A stretch of DNA of 64,000 nt. Source: Heptranchias perlo (lineage: Eukaryota). Positions within the stretch are counted from its first letter, which is position 1, and every line of letters starts with the position of its first letter. A model generated the notes under the pieces. The model searched no databases and was not told the DNA's origin. It was given only the letters and a program-made list of their open reading frames with translations. The stretch lies in NCBI RefSeq assembly GCF_035084215.1, contig NC_090351.1:28582001-28646000 (forward strand). Reading direction: 5' to 3'. Positions 1,961 through 31,250 of the stretch are shown piece by piece. The position numbers and the translations under genes are program-made.

Positions 1961-2572
1961 AAAGACTTGCATTTATATAGTGCCTTTCACAACCTCAGAA
2001 CGTCCTAAAGCGCTTTTACAACCAATGAATTACTTTTAAAGTGTATCTGCTGTTGTAATGTAGGAAACGTGGCCGCCAATTTGTGCACAGCAAAAGGTCC
2101 CACAAACAGCAATGAGATAATAACCAGATAATCTGCTGTAATGATCTTGGTTGAGGGATAAATATTGGCCAGGGCACTAGGGAGAACTCCCCTGATCTTC
2201 TTTGAATAGTGTCATGGGATCTTTTATGTCCAAGGCAAACGAGGCCTCAGTTTTACATAGAATGTACAATACAGAAACAGGCCATTCGGCCCAATAGGTC
2301 CATGCCGGTGTTTATGCTCCACACGAGCCTCCTCCCTCCCTACTTCATCTAACCCTATCAGCACATCCTTCTATTCCTTTCTCCCTTATGTGTTTATCTA
2401 GCTTCCCCTTAAATGTCTCATCTGAAAGACGGCACATCCGACAGTGCAGCACTCCCTCAGTACTGCACTGAAGTGTCAGATTAGATTATGTGCTCAAGTC
2501 TCTGGAGTGGTTGTTGAACCCACAGCCTCTGACTCAGAGGCGACAGTACTACCACTGAGCCAAGGCTGACAC
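1961..2572 (-). mobile_element. same SINE family, interrupted by a CR1 3' fragment (2255-2414)
   Basis: reverse complement of the 25641 SINE; other copies at ~23030-23480, 32030-32480, 37330-37460 and 60940-61330. Confidence 0.8.
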
Positions 2573-3176
2573 CTTAATGAAGGAATGAGCAAGGCAATTG
2601 ACTAGAATAAGTGTTTTCTAAATTAATTTGTACTGGATAACATTGATCTTACAGATAATTGTGGAGCCTTTGGGAGTAGGTGAAAATCATACTGGAAGAA
2701 GGATCTGAACATGTGTTAAATATTCACTTCATAAATAAAGTCGTTGCACAAATCCCATCTCCACTCAAATTGATTCAGAAATCTAGAGGTCAGTATTACA
2801 TGTTATGAAAAAGCACAAATAAATAATTGTTTATGTGGCACTCAGACTAGCTGAGATGCACCCTAGAATCCTCAAGGAAAAGAGTGCATAAAGAATTATG
2901 TTCTGGTTGGTATTTTTAAAAATTCCATCAATACAGAATCTTTTAAAATTCCATCATCAATAAAGTCTTAGCTTCAGACTGCACAGATACCTAAAGCTAC
3001 AGCTTCCAAAGACACGAGTGAAATAGGCCCAAACACATTCCATGTGTATCGTTTATTGATCAAGGTGGGTTGAGGTTTTATTGATCTATAAAACTCTTCA
3101 GAACAAATTAACATAAATTTAATAGTTTGATTCAATCTTAAAAGATTGCAACAGTGACAATAAAAAGCCTTTAGTA

Positions 3177-3340
3177 TTATTCACTGTCAACACAATCTTC
3201 TAACTTTGCAAATAGGTTGTTTTGCAAGGTGTTGATTTCCTGTTTCTTTTCTGTGAGCTGCTCTTTAAGTTCATTGATTTTCTTTTGCTCTTTAAGAATT
3301 TTCTTTCCAGTTGCCATAAGAGGAACTAGACAGGCATGCC
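3177..3340 (-). CDS. Cys-loop/coiled-coil exon of the Gla gene (donor at 3185 or stop at 3177)
   Basis: ttttcag|GG HACLVPLMATGKKILKEQKKINELKEQLTEKKQEINTLQNNLFAKLEDCVD(S|gtgaat or SE*); phase-1 start fits the previous exon; minus-strand AATAAA at 3077-3082 and 3052-3057. Confidence 0.65.
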
Positions 3341-4863
3341 CTGAAAATAGAATCAGAATATTACTGTTACTCAGACCAAGGGCATAGTTACTATAGAATT
3401 GTCATTAGAATGGATTTACAGTAGTGGTGTGATAAAGTTTTAATTACATTTTGTTGTAATGACAGTTACCTAGTTGTGATGTAAAAGGAATAGATGTAGA
3501 AATAAAGCAGTATATGCAGATACTGAGAGTAAAACTGCATGGACCCATACCAAAACTGCAACCCTGGTAGTTCAGGGACATATGCCATCTATAGTATGCA
3601 ACTCATCACTGTTAGCCCATTAGAAGCTGTAGCCTATGTTTCCTGCTATTGCAGAGTGCTTTGAAGACCATCTGACTCAGATGACCACCTTCATAAACTA
3701 TATTACGCAAAGCTGAAACCATAAAAGCACAAACACTAATCTTACACGGTTCTCATGGTGGTGACGATTCAGAAACAAGTATAAACTGGCAGTGGGATGA
3801 CAACATGAATTACCCCATATCAACTGCCTTACACCCCTGTACTACCCATTGCATCTTGCTCATAATGCTTGAAATATGTTCTCACCACTGTTCCAACTTT
3901 CTATTTTAAGTCTGAGCATGTGTTCACATTATATAATTGCACACATCTCGCATGCATATCACAAAAAATATTTCAGATATATGGGTTTTCTTTAAACACC
4001 AATTTCTAGGAAGCCATTTTCCTTTCTTGCAACTATGACGTCTAGGAAATAGAATTGATTATGATGCTTTAGTTCCATGATGAATTTAGTAAGAAGGTCC
4101 CTGCAATCTTCAAGACTGCTGTTCCATGGAGCTACACTACAAATGTATTGTGCACATATGCCATTTAGACCAGAATTGATTGTGGCTGATGCACTTCATT
4201 CCTGTCTATCCAAACAAGGGCTTCAGCTGTGTTCAGGAATAAAAAGACTGTGTTTACCCTGATCATCAGCTGGGACAAGAAAGTAACTTCTGATTGGTTG
4301 AGGTACTTCCATTGGTTGGAAGTTCAGAGAATAAGTTTAGTGCTCTACACTCCCCACTAAGTTACTTAAAAAGCCTCCAAAGCATATGAAGTAAATATTC
4401 TAATTAGGAATTATTATTATGAAAGGTAAACCCTTCTTATCCTATAACTGGGATATGAATCTGGCACAAGAGGATTCACAATTTGTCAATACTGGCAGAC
4501 TGTTTGGATCTGATATATCAAATTTGAAATATTAGAACCAAGCAATCACCTCATTGTTTAAATTAAAAGCACCTTCATAAAATTATCTGTGCTAACAGGC
4601 TTGCTTGTTAACATGTTTACAGTGAATGGAAACTGGAAATTTTTTGGCCACAAAGATTTTGCTGTCTCAATCGTTCCTCAATCGTTAAGTATTGTTTGGA
4701 AGCAAGATTCATTTAACCAACACTTTTTAAACTAAATTATGCTGGAATTATTTCTAAATTAAAAACATTTAGGGGATCACACAATTTCTTTACCCTGTTT
4801 ACATTCAATGTTTCTCCAGTTCTGTTAAGTTACTGAACCAAAAAAAGAATCAATCATACATAC

Positions 4864-4894
4864 TTCCATGAATATAATCTTCCCAGAAGACTTC
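4864..4894 (-). CDS. aromatic-stack mini-exon of the Gla gene
   Basis: tctctttcctttgtag|GAA GTC TTC TGG GAA GAT TAT ATT CAT GGA A|gtatgt = EVFWEDYIHG (FWxxY), phase 0-1. Confidence 0.82.
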
Positions 4895-7800
4895 CTACAA
4901 AGGAAAGAGATAGATTTTACTTCAAGAACTTTAAGAAATGTAAATCACAAATAAAAACATACCTACAAAGACTTTATCAACAATGATAACAAATTACATT
5001 TATATAGCTCCTTTAAGGTAGAAAAACATCTCAAGGAATTTCACAGAAGTGTAAGCAAAATGGATGTCAAGTCAAAGAAGGAGATAGGTTTTAGAAGGGA
5101 TGACCAAAAGCTTGGTCAGTGAGGTGGGTTTTAAGAAAGGTCTTAAAGGAGGAGGTGATGGAAAGGTGTAGGGGTTCAGGGAGCAAATTCCAAAGAGAGT
5201 GATCCTTCAATCTGGTGTTCCAAGCAGGGAGCGGCACTTGTAGTGATATCGCAGCCCATGATTTTCTGTCTGTAAAAATTAAGTGGGCCACACATCCATG
5301 ATTTAGTGAGATACACTCGCTGTGAACTTCGCTCCCCACTTAAGAGCACTGGATTACATAATCACCCCTTAAACACTGTGCAGTCTTTTTATTGCCCATT
5401 CCTGTTTACCAGCCTGATATAAAATAAATAGGTTAGCATATTAATTAGACCCATAAGGGTAGATTTTATGACTGGGCCTGTTCTTTGGGTGTAAATTGGG
5501 CACTGCAAATTGGAAAACTGAGTGGAGATCTGCTGCTCCAGATCGCTGCCCTTTTAGTGTCTTCAATTGGGATTACACAGAGTGTAGAAAGCCCTCAGTA
5601 ATTTGTGGGCGGATGCTTATGAAAGAGTGCATGATGGCACCATGATGCGATTCATGCAAGTTTCATCATTTCTTCCCATTTCACGTCATTTCCTTTATCT
5701 GCTCATGTGAGCTGAATGTTCAGGCTTGGCCTGGTGGACCTCCAAAATGATATCAGTTTTAAAGAGACCAGTAGTGAGAGTGCAACATTATCAGGCCATT
5801 GCTAAAGCTTTTCTCTTGTGTCTTTTTCCCTGTTGCCATGAGTTGTTGTGTAGAGCCTTCCTAACTATTGCTGTGGTGCTGCCTTTATGTCCGTTCCCAT
5901 GATGCCATAATGGGTTTTCCATTGGAAATTCTCTTACGTCTTTGTTTTTTTTGGGAGGAAGACTGACAGAGGGATGCCCAGCAGGTAGGACTGAACCTGA
6001 AACACTCAGAACCTACCCGCCAGTGACCCAACACTGGAATATACAGGCAAAGGCACACTCTCATCTGTTATTGGCTTCTTATTCCTGTAGTCATAAACAA
6101 AGTGCCACAAGGGTTAAAAGCCCCAACATAGCAATGCACGTGGCCATTCTGCCTTTTAAAACGTACCCGAGACCCCAGTAAGTAGCGTGCAAGTTGTGGA
6201 AACATTAATAGCCCCATGTTTTCTAATAGGTGAGCTACAACATTACATGGCTTCTTTGGAAGATGTTAGGTGTGCCATACGTTAGTATAGGGTGCCTTGT
6301 GATGGTGTGATTAAGGCTAGATTTCATAAATGAGAAATATACATACAAAGTCCAGGTGCAGCTCTTAGAGGTGAAAGTACCTGTTACTAGTATGCCATAA
6401 CATTTAATCTGATGCAACCAAATTCGGAATGCACCTATTTTTGAAAATTTCCGAGGGTGGAAAATTTCTTGCACAGCTGACTGACTGACCTCCTCACCAG
6501 TGACACCACATTGACTTGCTCAGTGACTTTGTCCCACACATGCCTCGCTTTTGAAGAGGGTGCCCCTTGATCCAAACGTGACAGCTCTCCTTCGCTGCAG
6601 CTCCCTCAGTATCTCTGCCCTGGTCACTTGCACTCCTTCAGTCCATGTCCCCCTTCTGTCAAATCTTGCAACTCAGCACTTAGCTGCATCATATTATAAA
6701 TTACGGCATACTAGATTGGTTATACACTGGTCAGCAATCCTTGAAGGCACAACTGCAGCCCTTTAAATGTGCTGCTGTTCAGATATCCCACTCCAACACC
6801 CTTTTCGCTCACAGAGGATTTCCCCAGGTTTTCCAATGTCCCCTCACTTAAATGCAACCGGTGCGCTCCCAGTGCAATTCACATTACACATAGGAAAGGC
6901 AGAGGTTGGGATTCCCTGGGCAGATGCAGAAATGTGCCGATGCAGCTTCTTAAAACAGGACCTGCACTCCCTGTTGGTGGCAAAGTTTGAAACCTGGGCA
7001 TTTTCTAGTGTGCATTGTGTTGAGATGAGGCAGGATGCTGCTAATGGCAGGGGGCAGGGAGGACAACCTATATCAGGCGAAAAAGTCAGGGGAGCAAATA
7101 AAAATCCAAAACAAAGAACCAAGCAATGGTGCAATGCCCAGAAACCAAAAACGGCAAAAAGAACAAGACTAATCTCATCAAAAACTTTATAGTTCTAAAA
7201 ATATTTCCTGCAAGAGTGCACTTTGTTCCAACTTTTAAAGATGCCCAGAGGAGGCCTCCCACCACAGGAGCAAAGCATTGGAATTCAAGGGTCAGTAAAG
7301 ACACACCCCTAACTTGCTCCAAAATGAATGCACTAATGAGGCTTGCACCATGGAACCGCACAAGCCTCCTTCACCCCCAGCATTGCCCCACTGGAAAGCT
7401 CACAGCTAGTGAAAATCAAGACGCAAGGCAAAACACCCTTGTTCTCCGCCCCTTCCCTGCGTCTGGCACATGCCTGCATATGTAGATGGGATCTCAGCCC
7501 CTGTTACCTGCACATTGCTCAGTTCATGCAAGGGATGCATGGATAATATTTCAATTAGCAGGACTCACTAGATACCAGTTGGTCCATGACCTGTGGCGAT
7601 GACATGAACTGTGTGCACTTGCCGGTACAAAATTTAACCAATTATTCCCGCCACTCGTGTGCCATTGTTTCTACCTACAGTAAACAGGTAATATTTTTGT
7701 GCACCAATGACAAAAAATTAGAACTTTCCCTTGCTGGGATGCATCAGTCTCCAGCTGTCAGGCTTATATCTCTACTCAGTACTGACAGAGACAAACTGCT

Positions 7801-7941
7801 GGTCCATCCAATACATTATCCTGAACCAATTTGTAACCCACCCCAACTATGCCAGAGAGTGTCTCCTTGACCTGTATAAAATAACATTTCAAATGAAAAA
7901 AATTAGATCAAACCAGATTTGAATAAACTTTAAATCCTTAC

Positions 7942-8093
7942 TGTGTTTTTGTTATTTTGAAAAACCTCTCTGGCCTCCTCGAAGGAACAAATATTTTCAA
8001 TACACTTTCTTTCCAGATTCCCTTTCTTAGGTTCCTGGTACGTACTGAAAGGCCAGGACAGGAACATAAAAGCCGTTGATTTCTGTAAAAACA
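7942..8093 (-). CDS. propeptide + Gla-domain exon of an unnamed vitamin-K-dependent protein (gene or pseudogene)
   Basis: tatttag|TG TTT...: (V)[50 protein letters not shown]|gtaagg; carboxylase-recognition F/A/L spacing, GNLERx[11 protein letters not shown]; canonical phase 1-0. Confidence 0.88.
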
Positions 8094-8499
8094 CTAAATA
8101 ATAACAATAAAGACAAGTTTACTCCTCAGTATCTCTCTGAAGAGGATGTGGATTCTGTCTTCATTTTATTTTACAGGAAAATGGAGAATGCATGATGTTA
8201 AGCCACTAAACACAGACTTCACAAGGATTTAGTAACTCCTGAATAAGAGTAAGTAAACTTTGTAGATCTCACCATAAATACTTATGCATGCTTATCATCC
8301 CCATTTTACTCGAATAGCTTGTGTTTTGGACCTGCAGTTTGCAGACATTAAACTTCTCGCACTCTTCTGCACAGCTCTGACATCCAGCTCTACCCCTCCC
8401 CCACTTCATCAACCCTATAACCACCCCTGTGCTGTCAGACTGCTTGTCCAATGTCAAGTCATGGATGAGTCAAAGTTGCCTTCAACATTGAGAAGACTG

Positions 8500-9150: not shown

Positions 9151-9376
9151 CTTGCAACATGGCATGATATCCACTCTTTTATTCCTTTTATCTACTTATC
9201 TTCTTTTTTTCTTCCTCTCTGAAAAGTGCCTTTGCATTCCAGGATGATCCTGGAGTAGAAAACAGTTTTTGGCAAAGGAGACCAGTGCCCGATAGTGCTT
9301 GATGTGGTCCAGCCAGATCTGGCGATGAACGGCTGAACCAACAACACCAAGAGCAGAAAATCTGGCCATTTAAAAA

Positions 9377-11085
9377 TTTTTTTTAATTCGTTCATGGGAT
9401 GTGGGTGTCGCTGGCGAGGCCAGCATTTATTGCCCATCCCTAATTGCCCCTTGAGAAGGTGGTGGTGAGCCGCCTTCTTGAACCGCTGCAATCCGTGTGG
9501 TGACAGTTCTCCCACTGTGCTGTTAGGAAGGGAGTTCCAGGATTTTGACCCAGCGACGATGAAGGAACGGCGATATATTTCCAAGTCGGGATGGTGTGTG
9601 ACTTGGAGGGGAATGTGCAGGAGGTGTTGTTCCCATGTACCTGCTGCTCTTGTCCTTCTAGGTGGTAGAGGTCGCGGGTTTGGGAGGTGCTGTCGAAGAA
9701 GCCTTGGCGAGTTGCTGCAGTGCATCCTGTGGATGGTACACACTGCAGCCACAGTGCGCCGGTGGAGAAGGGAGTGAATGTTTAGGATGGTGGATGGGGT
9801 GCCAATCAAGCGGGCTGCTTTATCTTGGATGGTGTCGAGCTTCTTGAGTGTTGTTGGAGCTGCACTCATCCAGGCAAGTGGAGAGTATTCCATCACACTC
9901 CTGACTTGTGCCTTGTAGATGGTGGAAAGGCTTTGGGGAGTCAGGAGGTGAGTCACTCGCCACAGAATACCCAGCCTCTGACCTGCTCTCATAGCCACAG
10001 TATTTATATGGCTAGTCCAGTTAAGTTTCTGGTCAATGGTGACCCCCAGGATGTTGATGGTGGGGGATTCGGCGATGGTAATGCCGTTGAATGTCAAGGG
10101 GAAGTGGTTAGACTCTCTCTTGTTGGAGATGGTCATTGCCTGGCACTTATCTGGCGCGAATGTTACTTGCCACTTATGAGCCCAAGCCTGGATGTTGCCC
10201 AGGTCTTGCTGCATGTGGGCTCGGACTGCTTCATTATTTGAGGGGTTGCGAATGGAACTGAACACTGTGCAGTCATCAGCGAACATCCCCATTTCTGACC
10301 TTATGATGGAGGGAAGGTCATTGATGAAGCAGCTGAAGATGGTTGGGCCTAGGACACTGCCCTGAGGAACTCCTGCAGCAACGTCCTGGGGCTGAGATGA
10401 TTGGCCTCCAACAACCACTACCATCTTCCTTTGTGCCAGGTATGACTCCAGCCACTGGAAAGTTTTCTCTCCGATTCTCGTTGACTTCAATTTGACTAGG
10501 GCTCCTTGGTGCCACACTCGGTCAAATGCTGCCTTGATGTCAAGGGCAGTCACTCTCACCTCACCTCTGGAATTCAGCTCTTTTGTCCATGTTTGGACCA
10601 AGGCTGTAATGAGGTCTGGAGCCGAGTGGTCCTGGCGGAACCCAAACTGAGCATCGGTGAGCAGGTTATTGGTGAGTAAGTGCCGCTTGATAGCACTGTC
10701 GACGACACCTTCCATCACTTTGCTGATGATTGAGAGTAGACTGATGGGGCGGTAATTGGCCGGATTGGATTTGTCCTGCTTTTTGTGGACAGGACATACC
10801 TGGGCAATTTTCCACATTGTCGGGTGGATGCCAGTGTTGTAGCTGTACTGGAACAGCTTGGCTAGAGGCGCAGCTAGTTCTGGAGCACAAGTCTTCAGCA
10901 CTACAGCTGGGATGTTGTCGGGGCCCATAGCCTTTGCTGTATCCAGTGCACTCAGCCGTTTCTTGATATCACGTGGAGTGAATCGAATTGGCTGAAGACT
11001 GGCTTCCGTGATGGTGGGGATATCGGGAGGAGGCCGAGATGGATCATCCACTCGGCAATTCTGGCTGAAGATGGTTGCAAACGCT
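9377..11085 (-). mobile_element. young 5'-truncated LINE, CR1/L2-group RT (family A)
   Basis: long open RT frame: ANYRPISLLSI, QFGFR, LDIKAAFDRVWH, GVPQGSVLGP, FADDCT; A-rich 3' tail. Confidence 0.95.
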
Positions 11086-12262
11086 TGCTGTATGTGGGAC
11101 CTTGCTGTGCTCAAATTGGCTGCCTCATTTGCCTACATTACAACATGACTGAACTTTGAAAGTATTTCAATGGCTGTGAAGCACTTTGGGACATCCTGTG
11201 GAAGTGAAAGACATTATACAAGTGCAAGTTTTGTCTTAAAGATCTTTTTGAATATCCATTAATCCCACCTCTCCACTCTCAGTTTCCTAACAGCGATTTA
11301 ACTTTTGGTATTACACGAGCATTCCCGTGTTATCCTGTGCTCGAAGATCATGACCTTTTCTATGGCTCACAAATAAGCTTAAAAAAATCCTCAACGAGCC
11401 AATCTTTCACTGAAATTGTGGCATTTCTGGTTCAGTCTTATTGGTTGATTAGTAATAAAATACCATAGTGCTCCAACCACCATTCTAGTACTGAATTAAA
11501 GTTACATCTAAGTCAGAATTCTAATAAATTATCTTATAAAATAATTAGCAGTTGATACTTTTAATGTATTGTATTGATACAGAAACATGATCCTCAGAAT
11601 CCCTCTCAATTAAACTATTAATTATAAAACTTACAGGAATTTGTCAGGCAGCACCCATAGAAAAGCAACAGGATTGTTACATTCTTGAAAATGACCGTCA
11701 TGGTTGAGATTCAAACTCTTTCCTTTTTTATAAGCACTGGGACAGTGAAGACCAAAGTTGTACGAGATGGTTCCACTCCTCCTCTGTTTGCTCTTTCATT
11801 GTTTATGTAACCGGTGTTTTTGCTCATTCCAATATTTTAGTTAATAAATAACAAGATATGTTCTAAAGCTGCATTGGCACAAAAATGCACCAAACTTCGT
11901 CTCTGATGCAATATCTTCAACACTGCAGGTATCAGTAAACTATTTTGTCATATTATGTGGGTGATTTTATTGTACGGTGCGGCATACAACTGCACTACAC
12001 CAAAATATAACTTACTGAATGGATCAACAGTTATCTATTGGAGCTGTTTAGGTTGAGTGTTCTTTGTATCTGCCATACCACAGCGGAACCAGAGGGTTTA
12101 AACCACATAACATATGGAACCTATATCACGTTATTTGAATATGTACTGGGTTCTACTGCCGTAAAACAGTGTGTTATTTCTCAGTAAAACCATTCCATGG
12201 TAGAAGTTTGCAAACACCCCTCCTTTTATCATGTAATACAAAGCCACATGATAAATATTCAC

Positions 12263-16820: not shown

Positions 16821-19800
16821 TTACTGAAAATAAAGGGGAAAGGAGTCATAGGACTGGAAAGTAGCTCATTCAAAAGGGAAGGGATCTAGCCCATATTAAT
16901 TGATTGGAATGGCAGATTCCTAATTGGTATGTATTTAACCTGTACCCTACAAGCTGGGTAGGATACATGTTAAATACATTCCAATTAGGAGTAAATGGAA
17001 TGTCAGAGGCTGGGGTTCCATGGATAACAAGTAAAATGAGAATAAAAATGGTATATGATAATGCAGGGGATATAATAGAAGAAAAGGGATGACAAAGCTT
17101 GGTTGAAGAGGTGGAATTTGAGAAGCTGTTTTTAAACAAAATCAAAAATGGTGAATTGAAGAAGTGGGAGGGAGGGAGTTTCAGAGAATAGGACCAAAGC
17201 AACTGAAGCCTTTGCCTCTAACGATGCATGAAGGGGTGCACAAAAAAAATAATTATATATGGAACTTCCCCAAATTCCTTTGCTAATTCAATTAATTTAC
17301 ATTCCTTCCCCCACCGTTAAGTGTCTTAAAAACAATGCTTTTACTACAATTCTTTTTTAATTAATTGGTCTCGTCTAATTGATGAACAAATATGACACAT
17401 GGGATGCTTTTTAAAAGGACTATTCAGTTTGATGAGGAAACACTTGTGAAGGATGGTTGAAGAAATAAAGTTTGGCTAATACAAAAGATATATTGGTGAG
17501 TGTTAATATCTGGCAGTCTTATAGAACGACCATACCTAGAAGGTTACTATTCATAAAAGTGATTTATTTCTTCGGTCCTTTGAACAGCTATCCCACGTTT
17601 TAGGATGGTTGCAAGCAGTTGTGACCCCATTCATACATGCATCAAAAAGTGAAAGTACTGATGATTACTCAATATTATTGGTCATGAACAACACTGAATT
17701 GGAAAAGAAATCAGTAACTGTTTCTTTTAATACCTTGTACATTAATGTGAACATTAGCCAAAACCCTTCAGATATTGTTAAACCAATTTCGACAGGAAAA
17801 CAGGAAAAATTCACCAATTGATGAAAAATACAGATCAACCACAATGGCAGAGGCAGAATTTTTTTTTGGGGGGGGGTGGGGGAGGAGTATTTGAATATGA
17901 GCTTATCAGACAAAACAAAACTACTTTTTAAAAAGGCCTATGTTTCAAATAGGGAATTCACAATAATGTTCAAATGGAAACATTATTCAATTAATAAAAC
18001 AAATAGAACAAATGAAAAGAAAAAAAAACAAAAAACGACAGAACAGTCTCGTCAGACAAAAGCTCTAAAGCACTAAGTCCAAGTGCTGATTATGTGTTGC
18101 TAGTCTATCAATAACTTCCCTACTAATTACCGTATTATCCCAGTTACATTTAGAAGCGTAAGCCCAACTAATCAGTTTTCACTGGTCGAATTATGGGACT
18201 GACTAGCTCTGGATGAACATCCACTGTTTTTGTGTTCTATCAAGTTCACGTTAAGGCAAGTTCTTTCGAAAGGAGTAGTGGTTTGATTTTTTTTTTAAAA
18301 CACTCAAATTTTGGGGGGTGTTTGAACACGCCCCCTGTCTATGCCCATGATAGACAAAAATTCAAAATAAGGCCAAATGAATGAATGCTCAAATACGTTT
18401 TTTTTTAAAAACAGTATAATTTAAAGATTATAAACATTTATATTACTATTTAATACGGCACAGGACTTAGTGTCCTCAAATATACATCAATATAAAATGG
18501 CACATGTTACAGGCTTTGTGAAAATGAAATGTCAGAATTACCAGAATATTCTTTGAAGTTGCTTCTATAATAGAAAAGGCTTTTTGTTGGCTTTCATAAA
18601 AGGTTTGATCAAAAATAAAATGATGTGCAACTGAAATAGGACAATCATTTATGGATATTTCCACCTTTGACCATCACCACTCATTCTAACGACATGCGTG
18701 AAACACTGCATTGATTGTATAGTATGAAAGTCAAAATAGATCAAATCATGAATATTCACTTCAAGTAAGCAGATGAATGTTAATCAGCTAATCGTATATA
18801 GCCGTTTTGTATATCACTAATATTTAAATTCTGATGGACCTGTAATATAATGAGCAAAGTTGCTATAAATACACAGAAACCAAGATTATTCCCTTATATC
18901 AGTAAATAACTGATTTTAATCTTCTGAAATCCCATGGTACCACATCACCGCTCACCAAATTACATAATTTGCAGATTTCTGATGTCCAGATAACATCCTC
19001 ACCATTAAAAACAGCAAGAAATCATTTTTATATAGAATTATGTACACTGGAGTGTGTTGCAGATCAGAAGCTAATCACTAGATTGAAAGGATATTAATAA
19101 AATGTAGTTATGATAAAAGTCACTGTTTCATTGCATTTTTAACAGCTGTGTGTACTGAAAAAAAAATTAAATCATGCAATCTTATATAGTATGTGTCATC
19201 CTTCAGTTACACAGATTAATTAGCAAATCCTTAACTTAGTATTTTGCATCCAAAGTATACAATGATTGTTGCTTCTTTGCCATTTCATTCTTGTATCTCA
19301 CTTGCAAATATTTTTTAAAAAAAACAAAAAAGTTAACTTGATGAGAAAAGTATTTCAATTATGAATTAGCTGCATCCAAGATAGAACAGGGAGCAAACTC
19401 TGTTGGAAGCTACGAGGGTCATGTTAACAGGCCTTTTGAAATCACTTTAGTTCATTCATATACCTTTTAAAAGAGCTCCATGATGCCTTTCATTAAATAC
19501 TCTCTCCTAGTCTCTGGTTACACATTTCTGTTAAGTGCAATCTCTTCATCTTATCACACGGTTTCAGTTGACAGGTTTTTTTTGAAAGCCAAGCCCATTG
19601 AAGCTGACACAGGACATTCCAAGTTCTACTCCTGACTTACAAAAATCCAAGGCCGAACACAGAACTTTGTCTGGGGACACTGGCACCCAATGTTTTCTCA
19701 AAATGTCACATATATTAAGAGTCTACAGCACAAAACAGCCCTTGTTGAACAGCTTCAGTGTCTCAGTAGCTGAACAATGGGAGTACCAAGACTTCATACA

Positions 19801-20140
19801 AACCCAGAAATTGATTCCAAAATTAGATCCCATTGTGAACATTGGGATTAAATTGCTATAAACCATATCAGATCTTGGAGAATTCAACATTTTCCTGATT
19901 ACAACTATAGGCAGAGACTGGGCAAATGGGGAAAAAAATCCACACAGAATAGAAACTTTAAGGAGCTCAATTTCCAAAAAAAAGTCAACTTCATAAGTTG
20001 CAACATGGTAACATTCCATCATCACTAGTAGGACAAGCATATTAACCATATAAATTAAAAAGTAATCATTATTTTACATTCACTTTTTGGAATTTTCACC
20101 TAGAGTTAACAGTTCTAATGATTGGGAAGGAAGTGTCTTT

Positions 20141-20368
20141 TTACTGGGCTGGCAGGGGTTGTGCCATGTGCAGGTTCGGAGGTTGAATTTGCCATGGTTC
20201 ATGTCCTTGGTTTGTTTGTAAGAGGTGGTAGAGCTGCTTCAGGTGAGTCACAATGTTATCTTTAATGTCTGGGGTTGAGATCTGCAGCCTGATGCTGCCA
20301 CTGTCAAAAGAACGTGTAAATTCACCATTGAACATCTCGTAAATCATCCGTGCAACAACTGGTACAAC
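20141..20368 (-). CDS. IRF6: IRF6 last coding exon
   Basis: [47 protein letters not shown]...PAQ*; tttcag|GTT; spliced CDS totals 1380 bp = 459 aa. Confidence 0.97.
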
Positions 20369-21604
20369 CTGAAAGATCAGGACATAAAATCAGAACATTA
20401 TTAATTAGGCAGGGAAAATAAAAAACAGTTTACTGTTTGCTACAGACCATGTAGCTGCATCGAGCTTCAAAATCCCAAACCCATCCCCACATAGTCATGT
20501 GCAATCTACTATTATAAAACACAGCATGTCCTGTACCTCCCTCCCACGCAACCTCTACCACTGTGAAGCATAAGAGCAGCAATGTTGTGGGAATACCATC
20601 GCCCATCATCCTGACTTGGACATTTTTTGTTGTTCCTTCATTGCTACTGGGTCAATATCCCAGAATTTCCTTCCTACCACCATCACCAAGGACTGCAGTG
20701 ATTCAAGAAGGCCCACCACCACCTCCTCAAGGTAACTAGGGATGGGTACTAATTGCGGCCTTGCCAGTGTTGCCCACATCCCAAGAACAAATATAAAATA
20801 AATGCATGCTGTCAACTGAGTAAGCTATTGGCTCAATGACAGCAGAGCTGGTTTCGGAAAATTGAACAGATAATTTTAATGATGTTGGAGCTGGAATTAA
20901 TTGGTCTAGATAACTGCTCAAATGGGGTGCGTGTCCCATACCAGTAATATACAACTCCCAAAGATACCCTGTGGTACGGCCAGGTTGCTACTAATACATT
21001 GTGTTTATTTTTTTTCTTAAATTAGGAAATTTAACAGTTCCCTGCCCCCAGATACTTAGATGCAATGGACTTTTACCAAATGGAATAGAACAAAAAAAAT
21101 GAAAGTATTGTTTTTACTGCTAAACATCCTGACCTTGAATTCAGTTACGACTTTAAAAAAAAGTGGGGATTTAGATTTGAAAATATCACTTAAAATGAAC
21201 TGTTGTAAAGCAAGAGGCAACTAAAGGATATGATTACTAAAAATAAGCAATAAAAGCTGTAATGCATTTTGTTGAAATTCATTTTAAAGAATTAAAGCTG
21301 AGTTTTGGAATGTTTTTTCAGTTCTCAATTTTAGATTTTAAAAAAATAGGGGACTTGGTTATTATTGACTTACACAGTAAGTACATATGTAGAATCTAGC
21401 TACATGCACAACATATCTTACATACTTATAATGGCAGAAATCTGAAGTTACACATTGACAATTAAGTCAGATTTATAACTTGGATGATACATTTCACAAA
21501 CCGAGATTCTCTTTGCAAAATTGTACACTTCAAATAAAGTGTGCATTTTGCGTGGAAACATGACCAATAATTTATACTGATGCAAAACCCAGGATGTCTG
21601 TTAC

Positions 21605-21723
21605 CTGCACCATTATTAGTTTTCTCTCTTTAGGCTTCCCATCTGGCCACTCTTCCCCAAAGCACATGTAAATCTCAAATGATGGTACTTTATTACTTTG
21701 TCCCCTTTGAAGATCAATCAGAT
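21605..21723 (-). CDS. IRF6: IRF6 coding exon 7
   Basis: (D)[39 protein letters not shown]; ttgcag|AT, CAG|gtaa; 119 bp. Confidence 0.96.
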
Positions 21724-22264
21724 CTGCAATTAAAAATTAAAATATGTTAGCTGATTTGTATGTGTAAAGTCACAAAGTTCCAATTTACAGACATGGTCAG
21801 TAATATTATTAATGGTTAATAATAAAACAATGTTGGAGACACTCAGCAAGCAACAAATTTCAGCATCAACCTCATAATTAGTCTAGCCCTTGGAGGAGAG
21901 CACTGCATCAATGGATGAGATCAGAGACACCACAAAAATTGTTTTTCCTTCCCCCTCTCCCACATATTCTCCTTTTATCCCCATGTCCAGCTTCCGCTGG
22001 CCGATGGGAGAACCAAGGAATCAAATTTCTCTCATCTGGAAAGAGAACAACTATAAGTTGAACTATTTCACATCTAAGGAAAACAACACAGGGGATAAAT
22101 AACTTTTGGGGGTGGGGGTGGGGGGCAGGGTGTGAGATAGAAGACAGGACCATCATACACCAAATGCAATAGGGAATTTCTTGCTTTGGAGAGTACAGAA
22201 ATGAAACTAACTTTGTTTAACCTATTTAATTTATAGAATGTTACTGAAGAATTAAACAACTCAC

Positions 22265-22657
22265 CACTTAAGAAGGTTTCCAGACAAAAGAGTTTGACTT
22301 TCTTCTGCCTTTCTATGACATGTGGGGTAGCAGTTCCATTTGCACAGGGTCCTGACCAGTACACCTTACACTGACACAGGCGAATGGCATAGATTGCATG
22401 ACCACTCACTTCCAGGATCAGTCCTCGGTCCATCACATCCAGTAGGCGGTTTGTGAAGAGACGTTGCTTTTCATTTGAGATATGCTCTGTTCCAGGAAAT
22501 TTCACTTGTTCAAGGGAAACCGGACCAAACAACTCCTCCTGGTTTGGCATTGGTCCCAAATCCCCATAAAAGAGACGGCATCCCTGTGGATTGCTGATGT
22601 TTAAGGTTGGTCCCAACTCTTTACCTCGGTACTGGAACTGGATTTCGAGGTCTGTCA
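22265..22657 (-). CDS. IRF6: IRF6 coding exon 6 (IAD/SMIR domain)
   Basis: (M)[15 protein letters not shown]...[21 protein letters not shown]...[18 protein letters not shown]...LFCLETFLS; tatag|TG, AGTG|gtgag; 393 bp. Confidence 0.98.
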
Positions 22658-23690
22658 CTATACAGAATTTGGGGGGAAAAAAGTATGAATCAAAGAGTTC
22701 TATATTTTAAAGCTCATGAAATTCAAGAGAACTCTTTCACAATATTTTTATAATTTGAAAGATGATTAGATCCACACCCACAGTGAATGCGTGAATATAC
22801 ATTTACTTAATTGAAATTTTTTAAAGCAGATTCCTCTTTACTGCAGGTTTTTGTTGTCAATCTACCTTCATTTATGCTCTTTAACCTTAACATGTGTACG
22901 CAGTTTATCGTTTTGTCTCAGTCAGATGCAAACGTTCACAGCTTGCTTTAAAATTCCCATTAAACTGCACATTTTACACCAATATATTTTCCCCCAATAT
23001 ACTTTCATCTTAATAATTTCCTGGGGAATCAGCTGGGCTCAGATAGCAACGTTCTCAGCTCAAAGTCAGAACATTCTGCCTTCAAGGCTCTCTTTAGGAA
23101 TGTGATGATATAATCTAGGGTGACATTCCAGGGCAGTAGTGTGAAGAATTGCATTGTGGGTGGTGCTGTCTGTCAGATTATATATTAAACCAACACATCT
23201 GCCAGTTCAGGTGTATTAAGGATCCCATGGCAATATGGAAAGAAGAGCAGGGAGTTCTCTTGGTATCTTGGATAACATTCTTCCCTCAACTGTAACCACT
23301 AACTTAAAAACAGGTTAACAAGTCATTTATCTCATTGTTGTTTGTGGGAATTCACTGTGCACAAAGTGTCTGTTGCATTTTCTGACATAACAGTCATCAC
23401 ATCTTCAAGTCATTCATTGTACATCCAGCTCGTTGAGATTTCTAAGATGTGATAAGGCGCTATATATATATAAAGCAAGTCTTTCTAATAAGGATATTGT
23501 GGTAAACCTAGGTTGACTATTAGTATTTAGCATGTTTTTAAGCAAGATGATAGAAAATGCAATTAACTGTGAATGAGGCGAAGGGTTGCAACGAAGTTCA
23601 CTTATTAGGGCAGGAGGGGAAACAGTATGGATATAGAATGACAGGTCAATCTTGGATTCGGTTTTGGCAAGCAACAGGTTTTTTGCTTAC

Positions 23691-23834
23691 TGGGCAATGA
23701 GCTGATCCAGGTTTCTGGAGTGCTGAATATCTCTGCTGGCAAATGTGGATCAACCTGCAGGATCTGTTCTGGCTCGTTCTTTATCCACTCATTGGGAGAA
23801 CAGCTGGTCACACTTGGAGGGGCCATAGGAGAGT
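23691..23834 (-). CDS. IRF6: IRF6 coding exon 5 (linker)
   Basis: (D)SPMAPPSVTSCSPNEWIKNEPEQILQVDPHLPAEIFSTPETWISSLP; ttgcag|AC, CCCA|gtaagc; 144 bp. Confidence 0.93.
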
Positions 23835-24309
23835 CTGCAAGGTTCAAATTACACAATTAAGAGTAATCATCGATGCCATTTAATAAAATATCAACTTTGA
23901 TTTCTAAACAATTTTTGTACCATCCTTTATTACATCATTCACGATTTACATTCATTTTTGTGTAATTTAGATCAGCTTTTTAAAAAAAAAAGTTTGATTT
24001 CAGGATGTGGGCAACATTGCCAGGGCCACATTTGTTGCCCATCCTAGATGCCCCGAGAAGGCATTGATAAGCTGCCTGCTTGAAGCAACTGTGTTACATC
24101 TGACAGGCTTGCTGGGCCACTTCAGCGAGAATCAAGAATCATCTCGAAGAGGAGGATTAGAGTCATCTACAGGTTTTGATTAAGCTTAAAGTTGTATTAA
24201 CGCTGTAAATAAAGGTGCCTGGATTTATTCAAATTCAAAATCGTACCTGAGTTATAATAGAATGCTGAGAGAATTTACAAGTTTACTACACAGTGCATTT
24301 TACACAGAA

Positions 24310-25420
24310 ACATATGAACATAAGAAATCGGAGTAGGAGAAGGCCATATGGCCCCTCAAGCCTGCTCCACCATTCAATCAGATCATGGCTGATCTTCAAC
24401 TTCACTTTCCTGCCCGATCCCCAGATCCCTTGATTCCCCTAGAGACCAAAAATCTATCTATCTCAGCCTTGAATATACTCAACAACTGAGCATCCCTAGC
24501 CCTCTGGGGAAGAGAATTCCAAAGATTCACAACCCTCTGGAGTAAAGAAATTCCTCATCTCAGTCTTAAATGGCCGACCCCTTATCCTGCGACCATGCCC
24601 TCTAGTTCTAGACTCTCCAGCCAGGGGAAACAACCTCTCAACATCTACTCTGTCGAACCCCCTCAGAATCTTGTATGTTTCAATGAGACCACCTCCCATT
24701 CTTCTAAACTCCAGACAGTATAGGTCCATTCTACTCAATCTCTCCTCATAGGACAACCCTCTCATCCCAGGAATTAATCTAGTGAACCTTCGTTGCACCA
24801 CCTCTAAGGCAAGTATATCCTTCCTTAGATAAGGACACCAAAACTGTACGCACTATTCCAGGTGAGGTCTCACCAAAGCCTTGTACAATTGTAATAAGAC
24901 TTCCTTACTCTTGTACTCCAACCCCCTTGCAATAAAGGCCAACATACCATTTGCCTTCCTAATTGCCTGCTGTACTTGCATGTTAACTTTTTGTGTTTCC
25001 TGTACCAGGACACCCAAATCTCTCTGAACACCAACATTTAATAGTTTCTCACCATTTAAAAATTTTTAATATTTCTATTCTTCCTACCAAAGTGAAGAAC
25101 CTCACATTTCCCCACATTATACTACATCTGCCACCTTCTAGCCCACTCACTGACCCAGTGTCCTCCTCACAGCTTACTTTCCCACATAGCTTTGTATCAA
25201 ACTTGGATACATTACACTCAGTCCCTTCATCCAAGTCAATAATATAGATTGTAAATAGCTGATCCAAGCATTGATCCTTGCAGTACCCCATTAGTTACAG
25301 CCTGCCAACTTGAAAATGACCCATTTATCCCTTCTCTCTTGTTTTCTGTCCGTTAACCAATCCTCAGTCCTTGCTAACATGTTATCCCCAACCCCATGAG
25401 TCCTAATCTTGCGAAACAAT
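24310..25420 (-). mobile_element. CR1 LINE fragment in an IRF6 intron
   Basis: VQRRFTRLIPGMRGLSYEERL; acataagaa 3' tail. Confidence 0.9.
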
Positions 25421-25640
25421 TATTTCTTGAAAATAATTAACCCAGCCAGAGTGATCGCTACAGTGCAGAATGTTGGATTCTTAATTGGGAGGTTCAACTT
25501 CAAAGTCCTAGTTTCTGTTGAACCTGGGAATAGAGGAAAAACCAGCCACCAAGGTGTTACTTGTCTCGCCTCTCAAGAATGTCGCCTAGTATCTGAAACA
25601 AGTAGTATTCCTACAGCTTGTGAAGAGATCCACATACTGG

Positions 25641-26095
25641 TGTCAGTCGTGGCTCAGTGGTAGCTTTCTCACTGCTGAGTCAGAAGGTTGCATGTTAAAG
25701 TCCCACTCCAGAGACTGGAGCAGAAAATCTAGGATGACAAACCAGTGCAGAACTGAGGGAGTGCTGCACTGTCAAAGATGCCATCTTTTAGATGCAACAT
25801 TAAACCGAGGCCTCGTCTGCCCTCTCATGTAGATGTAAAAGATCACATGGCACTATTCAAAGAGCAGGGGGGTTCTCCTTGATGTCCTGGCCAATATTTA
25901 TCCCTCAACCAATACCTAAAAATAGATTATCTGGTCATTATCACTTTGCTGTTTGTGGAAACTTGCTGTGCGCAAATTGGCTGCCGTGTTTCCTACATTA
26001 CAACACTGACCGCACTTCAAAAGTACTTCATTGGCTGTAAAGTGCTTTGGGACATCCTGAGGTCATGAAAGGTGCTATATAAATGAAAGTTCTTT
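25641..26095 (+). mobile_element. tRNA-derived SINE with Deu-like core and L2-type tail
   Basis: A-box TGGCTCAGTGG at 25650, degenerate B-box ~25695, CCCTCAACCA and GCTGTGCGCAAATTGGCTGCC core, GCTATATAAATG tail. Confidence 0.8.
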
Positions 26096-26169
26096 TTTTC
26101 TATACTGTACCAACCTGCACTTTTGTCCACAAGTATAGATAATGGGGAGGGAGGAGCAAAACCCACAAA

Positions 26170-28300
26170 CCACTGTGCTAAATGGGATAGATTCAGAACA
26201 GATCTAGCAGCTTAAAACTGGGCATCCATGAGGCGCTGTGGGCCATCAGCAGAAGCAGAATTGTATTCCAGCACAATCTGTAACCTCATGGCCCAGCATA
26301 TTCCTCACTCTACCATTACCAACAAGCCAGGGGATCAACTCTGGTTCAATGAGGAGCAGCACCAGGTGTACCTAAAAATGAGGTGCCAACCTGGTGAAGC
26401 TACAACACAGCTCTACATGCATGCTAAACAGCAGAAGCAACATGCTATAGACAGAGCTAAGCAATTCCACAACCAACGGATCAGATCAAAGCTCTGCAGT
26501 CCTGCCATATCCAGTCGTGAATGGTGGTGGACAATTAAACAACTAACGGGAGGAGGAGGCGGCTCTGTGAACCCCATCCTCAATGATGGCAGAGTCCAGC
26601 ACGTGAGTGCAAACGACAAGGCTGAAGCATTTGCAACCATCTTCAGCCAGAAGTGCCGAGTGGATGATCCATCTCGGCCTCCTTCCGATATCCCCACCAT
26701 CGCAGAAGCCAGTCTTCAGCCAATTCAATTCACTCCACATGATATCAAGAAACGACCAAGTGCACTGGATACAACAAAGGATATGGGCCCCGAAAAAATC
26801 ACGGCTGTAGTGCTGAAGACTTGTACTCCAGAACTAGCTGCGCCTCTAGCCAAACTGTTCCAGTGCAGTTACAACACTGGCATCTACCCGACAATATGGA
26901 AAATTGCCCAGGTATGTCCTGTCCACAAAAAGCAGGACAAATCCAATCCGGCCAATTACCGCCCCATCAGTCTACTCTCAATCATCAGCAAAGTGATGGA
27001 AGGTGTCGTCGACAGTGCTATCAAGCGACACTTACTCACTAATGCTCAGTTTGGGTTACACCAGGACCACTCGGCTCCAGGCCTCATTGTAGCCTTGGTC
27101 CAAACATGGACAAAAGAGCTGAATTCCAGAGGTGAGGTGAGAGTGACTGCCTTTGACATCAAAGCAGCATTTGACCGAGCGTGGCACCAAGGAGCCCTAG
27201 TCAAATTGAAGTCAATGGGAATCAGTGGGAAAACTCTCCAGTGGCTGGAGTCATACCTGGCACAAAGGAAGATGGTCGTGCTGCTGAAGGCCAATCATCT
27301 CAGCCCCAGGACATTGCTGCAGTAGTTTCTCAGGGTAGTGTCCTAGGCCCAACCATCTTCAGCTGCTTCATCAATGACCTTCCCTCCATCATAAGGTCAG
27401 AAATGGGGATGTTCGCTGATGATTGCACAGTGTTTAGTTCCATTCAAAACCCCTCAGATAATGAAGCAGTCTGTGCCTGCATGCAACAAGACCTGGACAA
27501 CATCCAGGCTTGGGCTGATAAGTGACAAGTAACATCCGCGCCAGACAAGTGCCAGGCAATGACCATCTCCAACAAGAGAGAGTCTAACCACCTCCCCTTG
27601 ACATTCAACGGCATTACCATCACCGAATCTCCCACCATCAACATCCTGGAGGTCACCATTGACCAGAAACTTAACTGGACCAGCCACATAAATAATGTGA
27701 CTACAAGAGCAGGTCAGAGGCTGGGTATTCTGCGGCCAGGGACTCACCTCCTGACTCCCCAAAGCGTTTCCACCATCTACAAGGCACAAGTCAGGAGTGT
27801 GAGGGAATACTCTCCACTTGCTTGGATAAGTGCAGCTCCAACAACACTCAAGAAGCTCCTCACCTTCCAGAACAAAGCAGCCCGCTTGATTGGTATCCCG
27901 TCCACCACCCTAAACATTCACTCCTTTCACCACCGTGGCTGCAGTGTGTACCATCTACAGGATGCACTGCAGCAACTTGCCAAGGCTTCTTCGACAGCAT
28001 CTCCCAAACCCACGACCTCTACCACCTAGAAGGACAAGGGCAGCAGGCACATGGGAACAACACCACCTGCACGTTCCCCTCCAAGTCACACACCATCCGC
28101 ACTTGGAACTATCTCACCGTTCCTTCGTCACTGGGTCAAAATCCTGGAACTCCCTACCTAACAGCACTGTGGGAGAACCTTCATCACACGGACTGCAGCG
28201 GTTCAAGTAGGGGACTCACCACCACCTTCTCAAGGGCAATTAGGGATGGGCAATAAATGCTGGCCTTGCCAGCGACGCCCACATCCCATGAACGAATTTT
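26170..28300 (+). mobile_element. family A LINE in an IRF6 intron
   Basis: highly similar to 9377-11085 with frameshifts and stops; same 3' end. Confidence 0.95.
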
Positions 28301-28838
28301 AAAACAAATTTGTAGAAACAAAATTATTTCTGGTTCTGCACCAATTTTTAAAATCAAACAACAAAATGGGAAAAGTCCCCACAAGGAATCTTATCCTATC
28401 TAAAAATGTATGCTGAATGAGATTACTAAGCATTAATCTAATTAATTACTTTTATTTTGTTCTGTTCATTAAATTACGGACCAAGTCTCAGCATTAAGCA
28501 TATCCTGATGCACCACCTTCAGTAAAGCTGCCTCCATTCTGCCTCGACCTTAGAAGAGCACTCCCACTGCACCAATATCATTTTCTCCATTTCACACACC
28601 AGCAATATTCTGTCCTCATCATGAGGCTGCCAAATTGTACGCGCTAGGAAATGCCAGACCCATTTCACTCTGGATGCTTATAGTCAACAGAGAACCAACT
28701 GGGTTGACTTCAAACACAGATTCTAGAGATTTTTTAAAAAGTATTTTATTCCACTTCACCATTAATGTTTTATTACAAGATCCTAATAGTAAAATAATAG
28801 ATTAGATTCACACCGATAATAGCTCTGGGTTCACTTAC

Positions 28839-28872
28839 CATTTAAATTCAGAAATGGAAAGCTTTCTTGCAT
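28839..28872 (-). CDS. IRF6: IRF6 34-bp mini-exon
   Basis: atacag|ATG CAA GAA AGC TTT CCA TTT CTG AAT TTA AAT G|gtaagt = MQESFPFLNLN, resembling IRF6 IQDTFPFLNIN; required to restore phase between neighbouring exons. Confidence 0.88.
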
Positions 28873-29568
28873 CTGTATATAAGAGAGGAAATGAACATAA
28901 ATATGAGAGCAGTCCTTCTTTTAAAATTACCTAAATGACCAAAGACCAATATTTTCATAAATGTGGAGTGGTCTATCGTTGAAGAATTTGAGTATATGCC
29001 AACTGTGTTAATTAGAATATAGGCCGACTGCATCAATTCCTTTAGAATATATGCTGATGCCATTATTTCCTGACAATCAAGGGTTGATTTGTCACTGGAT
29101 AAAACTGCATTGGTTACATCATAAATTTTACAATCACCACACATCAGCTGGTACACAGCACAGCTTCTGCTGGCATTCACAGTGAAAACCAGCATCAGGA
29201 AAAGTGCAATAAACCACCCCTGAAAACAATATAGATCATCAAAAACAGCAAATATACAAGAGTGATTTGAAGACTATAATTTCAAGTTCAGATACAAATT
29301 TCCACCCACATCCACTTTCCAGTAGGGATCCTTACACAGCAATCAGGAGCAAGAATCCAGGCTGATTTTTTCCTCTCTAGCCTACGGCCACTAAGGGCAA
29401 CTGTAGTGACCCTACAGCTGTACTTGCCACAAATTGAACTGGGGACTTTGTATTGTGTGATTTGGTTCTGCACCTGATGGTGACTTCACCTACCAAGCCA
29501 TCCAGTTTGAATTTGCCACAGTACCCTTATCATGCTCGAAAATCCTGTTTCAAAGCTTGTCCACTCAC

Positions 29569-29651
29569 TTTAACTTGAGGCTGAGAAGAGCTCACGTCAC
29601 CATCCTCTTCATCTTCCAAATCTATGTCATTTTCTTCCCAAGGTACTGATC
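29569..29651 (-). CDS. IRF6: IRF6 coding exon 3 (acidic linker)
   Basis: (G)SVPWEENDIDLEDEEDGDVSSSQPQVK; ttttacag|GA, AAA|gtgagt; 83 bp, phase 1-0. Confidence 0.9.
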
Positions 29652-29834
29652 CTGTAAAATACAAATTATATTGTTATATAATAAATTGAAAGACCTAATG
29701 GGTTGTCAGATTTAATTGCAAATCAATGCCCTCAGTCGTGCCTTTTCTACAATGACTGAAGTAAAACCTATTATTTACTATATGTGCAGTGTATCTTGGT
29801 TCCTGGCAGCAGTCTCATGCCTTTGTGAAGTTGT

Positions 29835-30056
29835 GATGTGGAGATGCCGGTGATGGACTGGGGTTGACAATTGTAAACAATTTTACAACACCAAGTTATA
29901 GTCCAACAAATTTATTTTAAATTCCACAAGCTTTCGGAGGCTTCCTCCTTCGTCAGGTTTCTACACCGTTCACCTGACGGAGGAAGCCTCCGAAAGCTTG
30001 TGGAATTTAAAATAAATTTGTTGGACTATAACTTGGTGTTGTAAAATTGTTTACAA
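29835..30056 (-). mobile_element. Penelope pLTR fold-back insertion in an IRF6 intron
   Basis: inverted arms ~29869-29958 and 29972-30058 with ~13-bp spacer; shared PLE tail; 13-bp TSD TTTGTGAAGTTGT at 29822-29834 and 30057-30069; hammerhead motif 29925-29959 (-). Confidence 0.88.
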
Positions 30057-30449
30057 TTTGTGAAGTTGTACTTTCTTTACAGATAACTAGATTTTATTTT
30101 TTGTTTAAGGCTAACGTTGAACTGAAAACAAATAATTTACTTGTTTTAGGCCCGAGAATATTTGGCTCTTCAATCAGTTGAAAGCTCAGGCCTAGTGTCA
30201 ATGACAATTGATCTTACGGTTACAGTATATTGTAATTTGACCCCTTGTGATTTAATTGGCTTTTTTCTCCTATCCCAATACAAAACCTACTGAATTACTG
30301 ATTCCTGCTCCCAGTCTGCTACAACTTGCAAGCATAAACAAAAATTACATCAGCAAAGTTCCAAAATGACAACTGTTTTTAAGCACTTAGGCCTTTTTTA
30401 AAAAAAACCTTGCCAGTACCAGCTGTTACAACTCAAAGCAATTTCCTAC

Positions 30450-30654
30450 CTGGATTACTGTGTGTGCCATTGCTCTGTGGGATATCACACACTTCGTAAA
30501 TCTTAAGAGGATTCATTGGAACCTCTTTGGTTCCATCATAAATTAGGTTAAATTCACGACTTTTATTAAGCGCACATCGGAGCTGTGCTTTCCACTTGGC
30601 TGGATCTGGGTCATCAATCCCTTCCTGATACTTTCCAGTTTCTACTGCCCATGC
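30450..30654 (-). CDS. IRF6: IRF6 coding exon 2 (C-terminal half of the DNA-binding domain)
   Basis: [59 protein letters not shown]...; ctgcag|GCA, CCAG|gtagg; 205 bp. Confidence 0.97.
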
Positions 30655-31250
30655 CTGCAGATAAAATACATTGGTATTAATATTTTAAGTGACCCTGATT
30701 TGTAGATTTAGACCAAATCATTCCTTTCTCCTTCCACTCCAACTCCTACTGGTCCCACAAAAATAATTTTTTTTAAAAAACGTACCCTTTTCAGCATCGC
30801 CGGTGAAACTGGTTGGCGAGTACAAGGCGCACACTCTGACCACTTCTGTCCTAAAATGCCAATCGGGGTCCAATATATGATGTTGTAGGACCTTCATTTG
30901 CATATTGAAAGGGACCTACCACCTGAATCTGGCAGGCACTTTGGCTGCCCAGTGGTAGGCCCGTGAAATTGGCAGCGGGCACAGCATTGGTATTAACTGG
31001 ACGGCAAGTCTATGGATCCCATTTTGAGGTCATTAACACTGATTTCAGCAAATTAAAAAATTGATCCCATTGTTACTCAGTGAGCAGTGACTAATCTTGT
31101 TCCATGTAGTGATTAACTATACAAGATTTCCCCATAGACTTTTGGGCATATTTTTTGTTTCTGTTCAATAAAATAATTTTTTTTTAAAAAAACTTTCCAT
31201 GGTCATTATAAACCAATTTACTCTAACTTTATCCACAGAGAAAATTATCA

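Follow-up and report, generated by a model that had tools for sequence, protein, structure and literature searches.

A shark gene beside an IRF-family gene encodes a probably secreted protein that joins a Gla domain to a predicted coiled coil

Results

A four-exon gene on the minus strand

The window analysed here is a 64,000-nucleotide stretch of the genome of the shark Heptranchias perlo (NCBI RefSeq assembly GCF_035084215.1, contig NC_090351.1, positions 28,582,001 to 28,646,000), and coordinates count from its first base unless stated otherwise. On its minus strand lies a gene, called gene 1 below, whose predicted product joins a vitamin K-dependent Gla domain to a coiled coil. Four exons, joined by their coordinates, give a 414-base frame and a 137-residue protein, which in a protein search was identical to a 137-residue NCBI model for this species, P0001, named 'coagulation factor IX-like'. 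Exon 1 (coding part 11701-11635, phase 1), located by tblastn of P0001, encodes the signal peptide (residues 1-22), ends at a GTAAGT donor and opens the joined reading frame. Exon 2 (8093-7942, phase 1-0) encodes the carboxylase-docking propeptide and the Gla domain, and matches Pfam PF00594 at 50.3 bits, where the cut-off is 27 (E 2.7e-13); its best sequence matches among solved structures in the Protein Data Bank (PDB) are the Gla domains of factor X and factor IX. These are followed by a 31-base mini-exon with the aromatic-stack motif FW..Y (exon 3, 4894-4864, phase 0-1) and by exon 4 (coding part 3340-3177, phase 1 to stop), which encodes a predicted coiled-coil helix of about residues 86-136, with Cys133 near its end, and the stop. 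Exons 2-4 had been put forward in an earlier note on this DNA, and their AG/GT ends, mutually compatible phases, coordinates and translation are as proposed there; the gene is larger than the interval 3177-8093 given in that note, with the signal-peptide exon lying outside it. Intron 1 also contains a 646-residue open reverse-transcriptase-like frame (9192-11132, minus strand), which we take to be of the long interspersed element (LINE) type.

The splicing evidence comes from three runs (X1, X2 and X3) of one sample in one study, of inferred RNA type, analysed as contigs over 2500-8400. In two of the three, a spliced contig (depth 241.9 in X1 and 9.6 in X2) carries GT-AG joints at 4893/7941 and 3339/4863, on either side of the mini-exon, which are the two predicted junctions; the unaligned contig end at 8093 in both runs corresponds to the 3' end of exon 1. 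Run X3 has no cover on the exons and says nothing on expression either way. The X2 contig spans 3339 to 3059 and reads across the GT that follows 3185, then the stop codon and the first AATAAA. The 3' untranslated region extends over 3052-3176, with AATAAA hexamers at 3082-3077 and 3057-3052. The deeper X1 contig stops at 3241, short of that GT. It had been suggested that exon 4 either stops at 3177 ahead of AATAAA or splices on at 3185; the X2 contig reads through to the stop, and the hexamers lie about 95 and 120 bases further on.

An optional 42-bp exon at 4000-4041 (minus strand), also suggested previously, was rejected: both spliced contigs skip it, its donor is weak, and it sits in a stop-broken FLD...RKP frame, a motif that we presume to be that of a retroelement reverse transcriptase. 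Because of this motif the stretch is likely a piece of a decayed retroelement; a DNA search with its 42 bases returned only the stretch itself. A second FLD...RKP-like frame elsewhere in the region resembles it.

Three tandem Gla genes without a protease

A search of the shark's own genome gave 21 matches. Two of them, at 5 and 19 kb outside the window on the side of its start, are Gla exons, and the 200 kb adjoining that start were added, bringing the region analysed to 264 kb. Three tandem Gla genes lacking a protease lie here between IRF6 and C1orf74, each with its own signal-peptide exon, gene 1 being the first. Gene 1 consists of Gla domain and coil; gene 2 of Gla domain, acidic linker and a related coil; and gene 3 of Gla domain, EGF module, short EGF-like module and stop. 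Neither of the protease motifs looked for, GDSGG and TAAHC, occurs on the minus strand of these 264 kb. The cleavage motif RxRR is kept in genes 2 and 3, and run X1 has spliced contigs for all three genes. A small, predicted-secreted Gla and coiled-coil gene beside IRF6, as the earlier note had pictured it, is upheld, including its lack of a furin site and the loss of four core Glu.

IRF domains lie upstream in the window, and the IRF-family gene at 19500-30700 (minus strand) is presumably IRF6. A DUF4504 gene, which we take to be C1orf74, lies 6 kb past gene 3. Farther along the window are an EF-hand gene at 50225-51833 (plus strand), presumably of the GCAP type, and a HAD-hydrolase-like frame at 54363-55094 (plus strand). 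The protein S, GAS6 and prothrombin genes of this shark are on other contigs; a protein S-like and a GAS6-like gene stand in tandem there, about 34 kb apart (G000:C6:110609001-110673000, L045-L049). Gla exons that we take, by similarity, to be PRRG-like occur elsewhere in this genome. Identically translated Gla exons were seen on a chromosome-scale contig and on smaller ones (C11:5432101, C521:12626 and C551:11174; a second set at C11:5069926 and C691:21581), and are likely assembly duplicates.

A family of sharks and rays

Family searches recovered three builds, namely a coil type, a linker-coil type and an EGF type. For the coil type, 18 proteins representing 17 species of sharks and rays were aligned, omitting P0137, P0265, P0004 (partial), P0037 (an isoform with an insert) and P0040 (a different tail). 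The linker-coil type comprises nine proteins, that of the chimaera Callorhinchus milii among them, and the EGF type is found in sharks and rays and in the records P0046, P0153 and P0165, which combine a Gla domain with two or three EGF modules and close with the short EGF-like motif that also ends shark gene 3. A coil profile run over 265 proteins matched only in sharks and rays at E 10 or better; the chimaera coil was matched by tblastn. The 18 coil-type proteins form a single branch (support 100/98) in a tree that includes 27 coil-bearing proteins. The closest relative of gene 1 is that of Heterodontus (55%), whose segment is likewise short and without RxxR; the two share 29 of 49 coil residues and 9 of 11 in the FW exon. 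Gene 1 fits the family build of signal peptide, propeptide and Gla domain, FW exon and terminal heptad helix ending in K-L-x-x-C. With coil-type relatives in 17 species, the suggestion of a decaying, lineage-specific paralog does not hold, and the exon at 3340 is both conserved (18 coil-type relatives) and spliced to the FW exon. Gene 1 is a real gene of an apparently undescribed shark-and-ray Gla and coiled-coil family: we found no paper on this family by title or beginning of abstract, in a search whose coverage leaves out most subscription journals, and one catshark semen supplement (PMC11083954) gave no matches.

The tree built on exons 1-2, which has 65 rows, 73 columns and many open forks, resolves no sister family for the Gla domain, does not recover the three-gene cluster as a single branch and leaves the gene 1 row on an unresolved fork. 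It does pair coil-type with EGF-type rows lineage by lineage (Mustelus 99/98, batoids 98/92, S. canicula 94/89, carpet sharks 91/87), the coil-type rows of Heptranchias and Heterodontus standing outside the branch of these pairs. Such grouping by lineage suggests repeated gene conversion together with at least three separate losses of the furin site, in alignments that are short. In the same tree P0046 joins the linker-coil rows (94/84), with P0153 and P0165 outside the cluster, and the ESM Atlas gives protein Z-like and factor VII-like clusters for P0046; the Gla-EGF build without a protease may have arisen before sharks. The ray EGF-type models P0141, P0044 and P0045 either contain internal repeats, with two Gla blocks in Hemitrygon, or lack the furin/omega-loop segment, and may be tandem copies fused by annotation.

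A conserved predicted helix in place of enzyme domains

AlphaFold2, run with 6 and with 18 sequences, predicts a single continuous helix over residues 86-136 and 88-135, respectively; by block, the predicted local distance difference test score (pLDDT) of the tail is 76-93 with 6 sequences and, over residues 91-140, 83-98 with 18. Across the 18 proteins, heptad a positions are hydrophobic (Cys counted) in 124 of 126 cells, I105 and L112 are invariant, and d108, d122 and e130 are hydrophobic. By its sequence, gene 1 is not a decaying oddity of one lineage, because these a positions are kept so consistently. Cys133 occupies an a position in 15 of the 18. A Cys near the start of exon 4 is present in five; in four of these, all myliobatiform rays, it stands at the loop-type first position. 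A single helix, with the first Cys in so few relatives, makes an intrachain loop unlikely and an interchain bond likely, and the predicted protein is likely a secreted oligomer held by its coil of about 50 residues and a bond at Cys133.

The Pfam matches of the coil all fell below the cut-off; Foldseek against the PDB gave nothing at E 0.001 or better, 13 of the 16 weak rows being Gla chains; and the ESM Atlas had no feature match for residues 74-137, its structure search returning generic helices only. The capture of a coil from a neighbouring coiled-coil gene was considered and set aside, the coil exon having matched itself alone in its own genome. When the coil profile was run against the region's 6,731 open frames (264 kb), its only matches were gene 1, at E 1e-25, and gene 2, at E 0.14.

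Origin and end of exon 4

In this shark, the loop exons of GAS6, protein S and the candidate prothrombin gene close with hydrophobic-x-x-Cys-hydrophobic-x and then a phase-1 GT. Exon 4 agrees with them in position, phase and terminal motif, and in the same register, three codons past Cys133, it carries a relic phase-1 GT (3183-3184, minus strand) through which the X2 contig reads. Motif and donor combine at only 46 of the 19,689 Cys codons of the region, in a test chosen post hoc. Since motif and splice register are shared, descent of exon 4 from a loop exon of the protein S/GAS6/prothrombin type is plausible, and we favour it with reasonable confidence as far as the exon architecture can tell. 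Ten of the 15 relatives with the Cys have the ending that read-through of such a donor would leave, whereas four have a codon there that has no room for the GT. Against descent stand the profile comparison with 24 loop sequences, at 2.5% probability, and the Gla tree, which gives the family no definite place.

The same likeness could mean that exon 4 still forms such a disulfide loop, closed within the chain by a Cys87-Cys133 bond and holding a helical insert. Exon position, phase, 3' motif and donor register all agree with this proposal, as does the rarity of motif plus donor, and the four rays carry their Cys where the loop would have its first. The two cysteines, however, lie 46 residues apart on a continuous helix, about 69 angstroms at 1.5 per residue; 13 of the 18 relatives, the closest (Heterodontus) included, lack the first; and the profile-profile probability against loop sequences is 1.9% with 3 sequences and 2.5% with 24. 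An intrachain loop is therefore highly improbable, and from the earlier comparison with prothrombin and protein S what stands is the layout, in position, phase and 3' register, without the Cys...Cys loop.

A further alternative is that exon 4 frequently serves as an internal exon, spliced from the GT that follows 3185 into the next gene to yield a multi-Gla chain. The GT is phase-compatible, and the deep X1 contig, ending at 3241, has no bearing on it. Cross-gene splicing does occur in the cluster: in run X1 a GT-AG joint runs from the gene 2 coil exon to an inner acceptor of the gene 3 Gla exon, matching the NCBI two-Gla fusion model P0020, and the gene 3 signal-peptide exon has two joints, one to the full Gla exon and one to the inner acceptor, which drops the propeptide (joints of genes 2 and 3 at L022:965, 1014, 3104 and 6152, which is about 28562965-28568152 of G000:C30). 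Among the 15 relatives with the Cys, moreover, ten end in Gly/Ser-Lys/Glu-stop, the pattern expected from donor read-through and known here from models only. Set against this, the X2 contig reads through to 3059 and no joint from 3185 is listed; four of the 15 have Asp or Thr at that codon, which is incompatible with GT, and still keep Lys-stop; and each gene has its own signal-peptide exon. Frequent onward splicing is, in our judgement, distinctly unlikely.

A probably retained propeptide and a depleted Gla head

Exon 2 of gene 1 has 152 bases against 161 in both paralogs, and the DNA alignment places the nine missing bases over the furin site. As noted earlier, the RxxR cleavage site is absent and about four Glu are replaced: six of the ten core Glu are kept, factor X positions 6, 16, 20 and 32 being Q, K, N and Q. 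The docking residues F24, A30 and L34, which we take to correspond to the carboxylase-docking positions -16, -10 and -6, are in register with those of intact relatives. At least 90% of rows retain A30 and L34, and Glu 19, 26 and 29 are invariant in the alignment, the furin/omega-loop segment being the least conserved. The furin motif is absent from 8 of the 18 coil-type proteins (one a partial model), on at least three separate branches; it is present together with all ten Glu in nine of the 18, and in nine of nine linker-coil proteins.

A canonical membrane-binding Gla domain has 9-13 Glu (PMC9669250), with positions 6, 16 and 20 among them; gene 1 departs from this type both in lacking RxxR and in its six of ten core Glu. 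In factor IX, a propeptide left in place disturbs the structure of the Gla domain as well as its membrane binding, and the omega loop is destabilised by changes of Glu (PMC8911121). With the cleavage site and key calcium residues lost, the gene 1 protein is likely incapable of the usual membrane grip and would act through its tail. Judged from the alignments, degeneration is confined to the Gla head, and similar loss recurs in other lineages.

Such a head could also belong to a still-transcribed copy under relaxed selection, heading for loss in this lineage. The Glu count and the 9-base deletion are compatible with this, as are an end branch of 0.44 against a median of 0.23 in the tree of 27 proteins and a ratio of non-synonymous to synonymous substitution (dN/dS, 43 codons) of 0.46 between genes 1 and 3, above the 0.29 between genes 2 and 3. 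Every dN/dS estimate is nevertheless under 1 (0.16 between genes 1 and 2), which points weakly to continued constraint; the 414-base frame is intact and spliced; and coil and FW exon remain close to those of Heterodontus, whose segment is equally short and furin-less. We consider loss in progress unlikely.

Another possibility is a mineral regulator resembling matrix Gla protein (Mgp), in which the propeptide-retaining form would bind calcium phosphate via its surviving C-terminal Gla cluster and modulate calcification in the cartilage, teeth or vessels of sharks. In its favour, the docking residues persist where the furin motif has gone, Glu 19, 26 and 29 are invariant, and a furin site is described as typical of Bgp and not of Mgp (PMC8006282). 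Both Glu of the Bgp ExxxExC motif described in the same text are, in contrast, gone in gene 1 (K52, N56), and its Gla domain is of the clotting-factor type. A role of this kind seems to us rather unlikely.

Discussion

The reading that we prefer, and hold with moderate confidence, is that gene 1 encodes an enzyme-less Gla protein of 137 residues, likely secreted, that would oligomerize through its 50-residue coil, with a likely interchain bond at Cys133, a propeptide that is likely kept and canonical membrane binding that is likely lost. The signal peptide would direct the product to the endoplasmic reticulum, where the kept docking residues F24, A30 and L34 would allow the carboxylase to modify the six remaining Glu; lacking RxxR, the propeptide would be retained, as in matrix Gla protein, and the tail helices would pair in parallel. 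Relatives with an intact head might thereby act as multivalent, non-catalytic binders of calcium and phosphatidylserine, competing with or bridging clotting-type surfaces. The gene 1 copy might act mainly via its coil, alone or mixed with the gene 2 coil, as a weak-binding or modulating subunit.

Several observations weigh against this preferred reading. The Gla half of the AlphaFold2 model is of low confidence (pLDDT under 50 at residues 14-55). Three of the six d positions (d101, d115 and d129), and d94 in addition, carry mostly polar residues, and charges at e and g are mixed, which makes a simple homodimer uncertain, and Cys133 is missing in 3 of the 18 relatives. The Glu count of gene 1 is tied lowest in the family and also fits relaxed selection. 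Finally, all RNA support comes as contigs of a single sample in a single study, data from which the NCBI model may itself derive.

In a wider and more doubtful picture, cartilaginous fishes would possess a separate, enzyme-free vitamin K-dependent system of three genes: two coil subunits in disulfide-locked homo- or hetero-oligomers, with working Gla heads tuned by repeatedly evolved 'disarmed' subunits that retain the propeptide; a coil exon that is a rebuilt protein S/prothrombin loop exon; and, in gene 3, the surviving light chain of a clotting factor without its protease.

Vertebrates have few vitamin K-dependent proteins, all told a well-studied set, and a conserved, enzyme-free combination of Gla domain and coiled coil adds an architecture to it, one now obscured by automatic names such as 'factor X-like'. 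The family would offer a natural small multivalent binder of phosphatidylserine or mineral, as well as a case of a Gla domain with its propeptide retained, and its exon remodelling and likely gene conversion bear on how clotting factors were assembled.

Factors VII, IX and X, along with proteins C and Z, have in common with gene 1 the signal peptide, the propeptide and a clotting-type Gla domain, and the database names 'factor IX-like' and 'factor X-like' stem from the likeness of its Gla domain to those of factors X and IX. These proteins are built as Gla-EGF-EGF-protease (PMC9643190, PMC9669250), whereas gene 1 has neither EGF nor protease and gene 3 has two EGF-like modules and no protease. 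PRRG1-4 are likewise Gla proteins without a protease; gene 1 differs from them in having a signal peptide and a charged helix and in lacking a membrane segment and PY motifs. Like matrix Gla protein and osteocalcin, the gene 1 product is small, predicted to be secreted and non-enzymatic, and it shares with Mgp the lack of a furin site after the docking residues (PMC8006282); unlike them, it has a Gla domain and exon layout of the clotting type and a coiled-coil tail, and has lost the Glu pair of ExxxExC. In the case of protein S, GAS6 and prothrombin, the first three exons agree in order and phases, and the fourth exon of gene 1 shares their terminal motif and donor register. Gene 1 differs from these three in being without EGF, laminin G, kringle or protease domains; where they hold two conserved cysteines 15-30 residues apart, its pair stands 46 apart on one predicted helix, the first being mostly absent in relatives, and its fourth exon is a terminal heptad helix of 50 residues.

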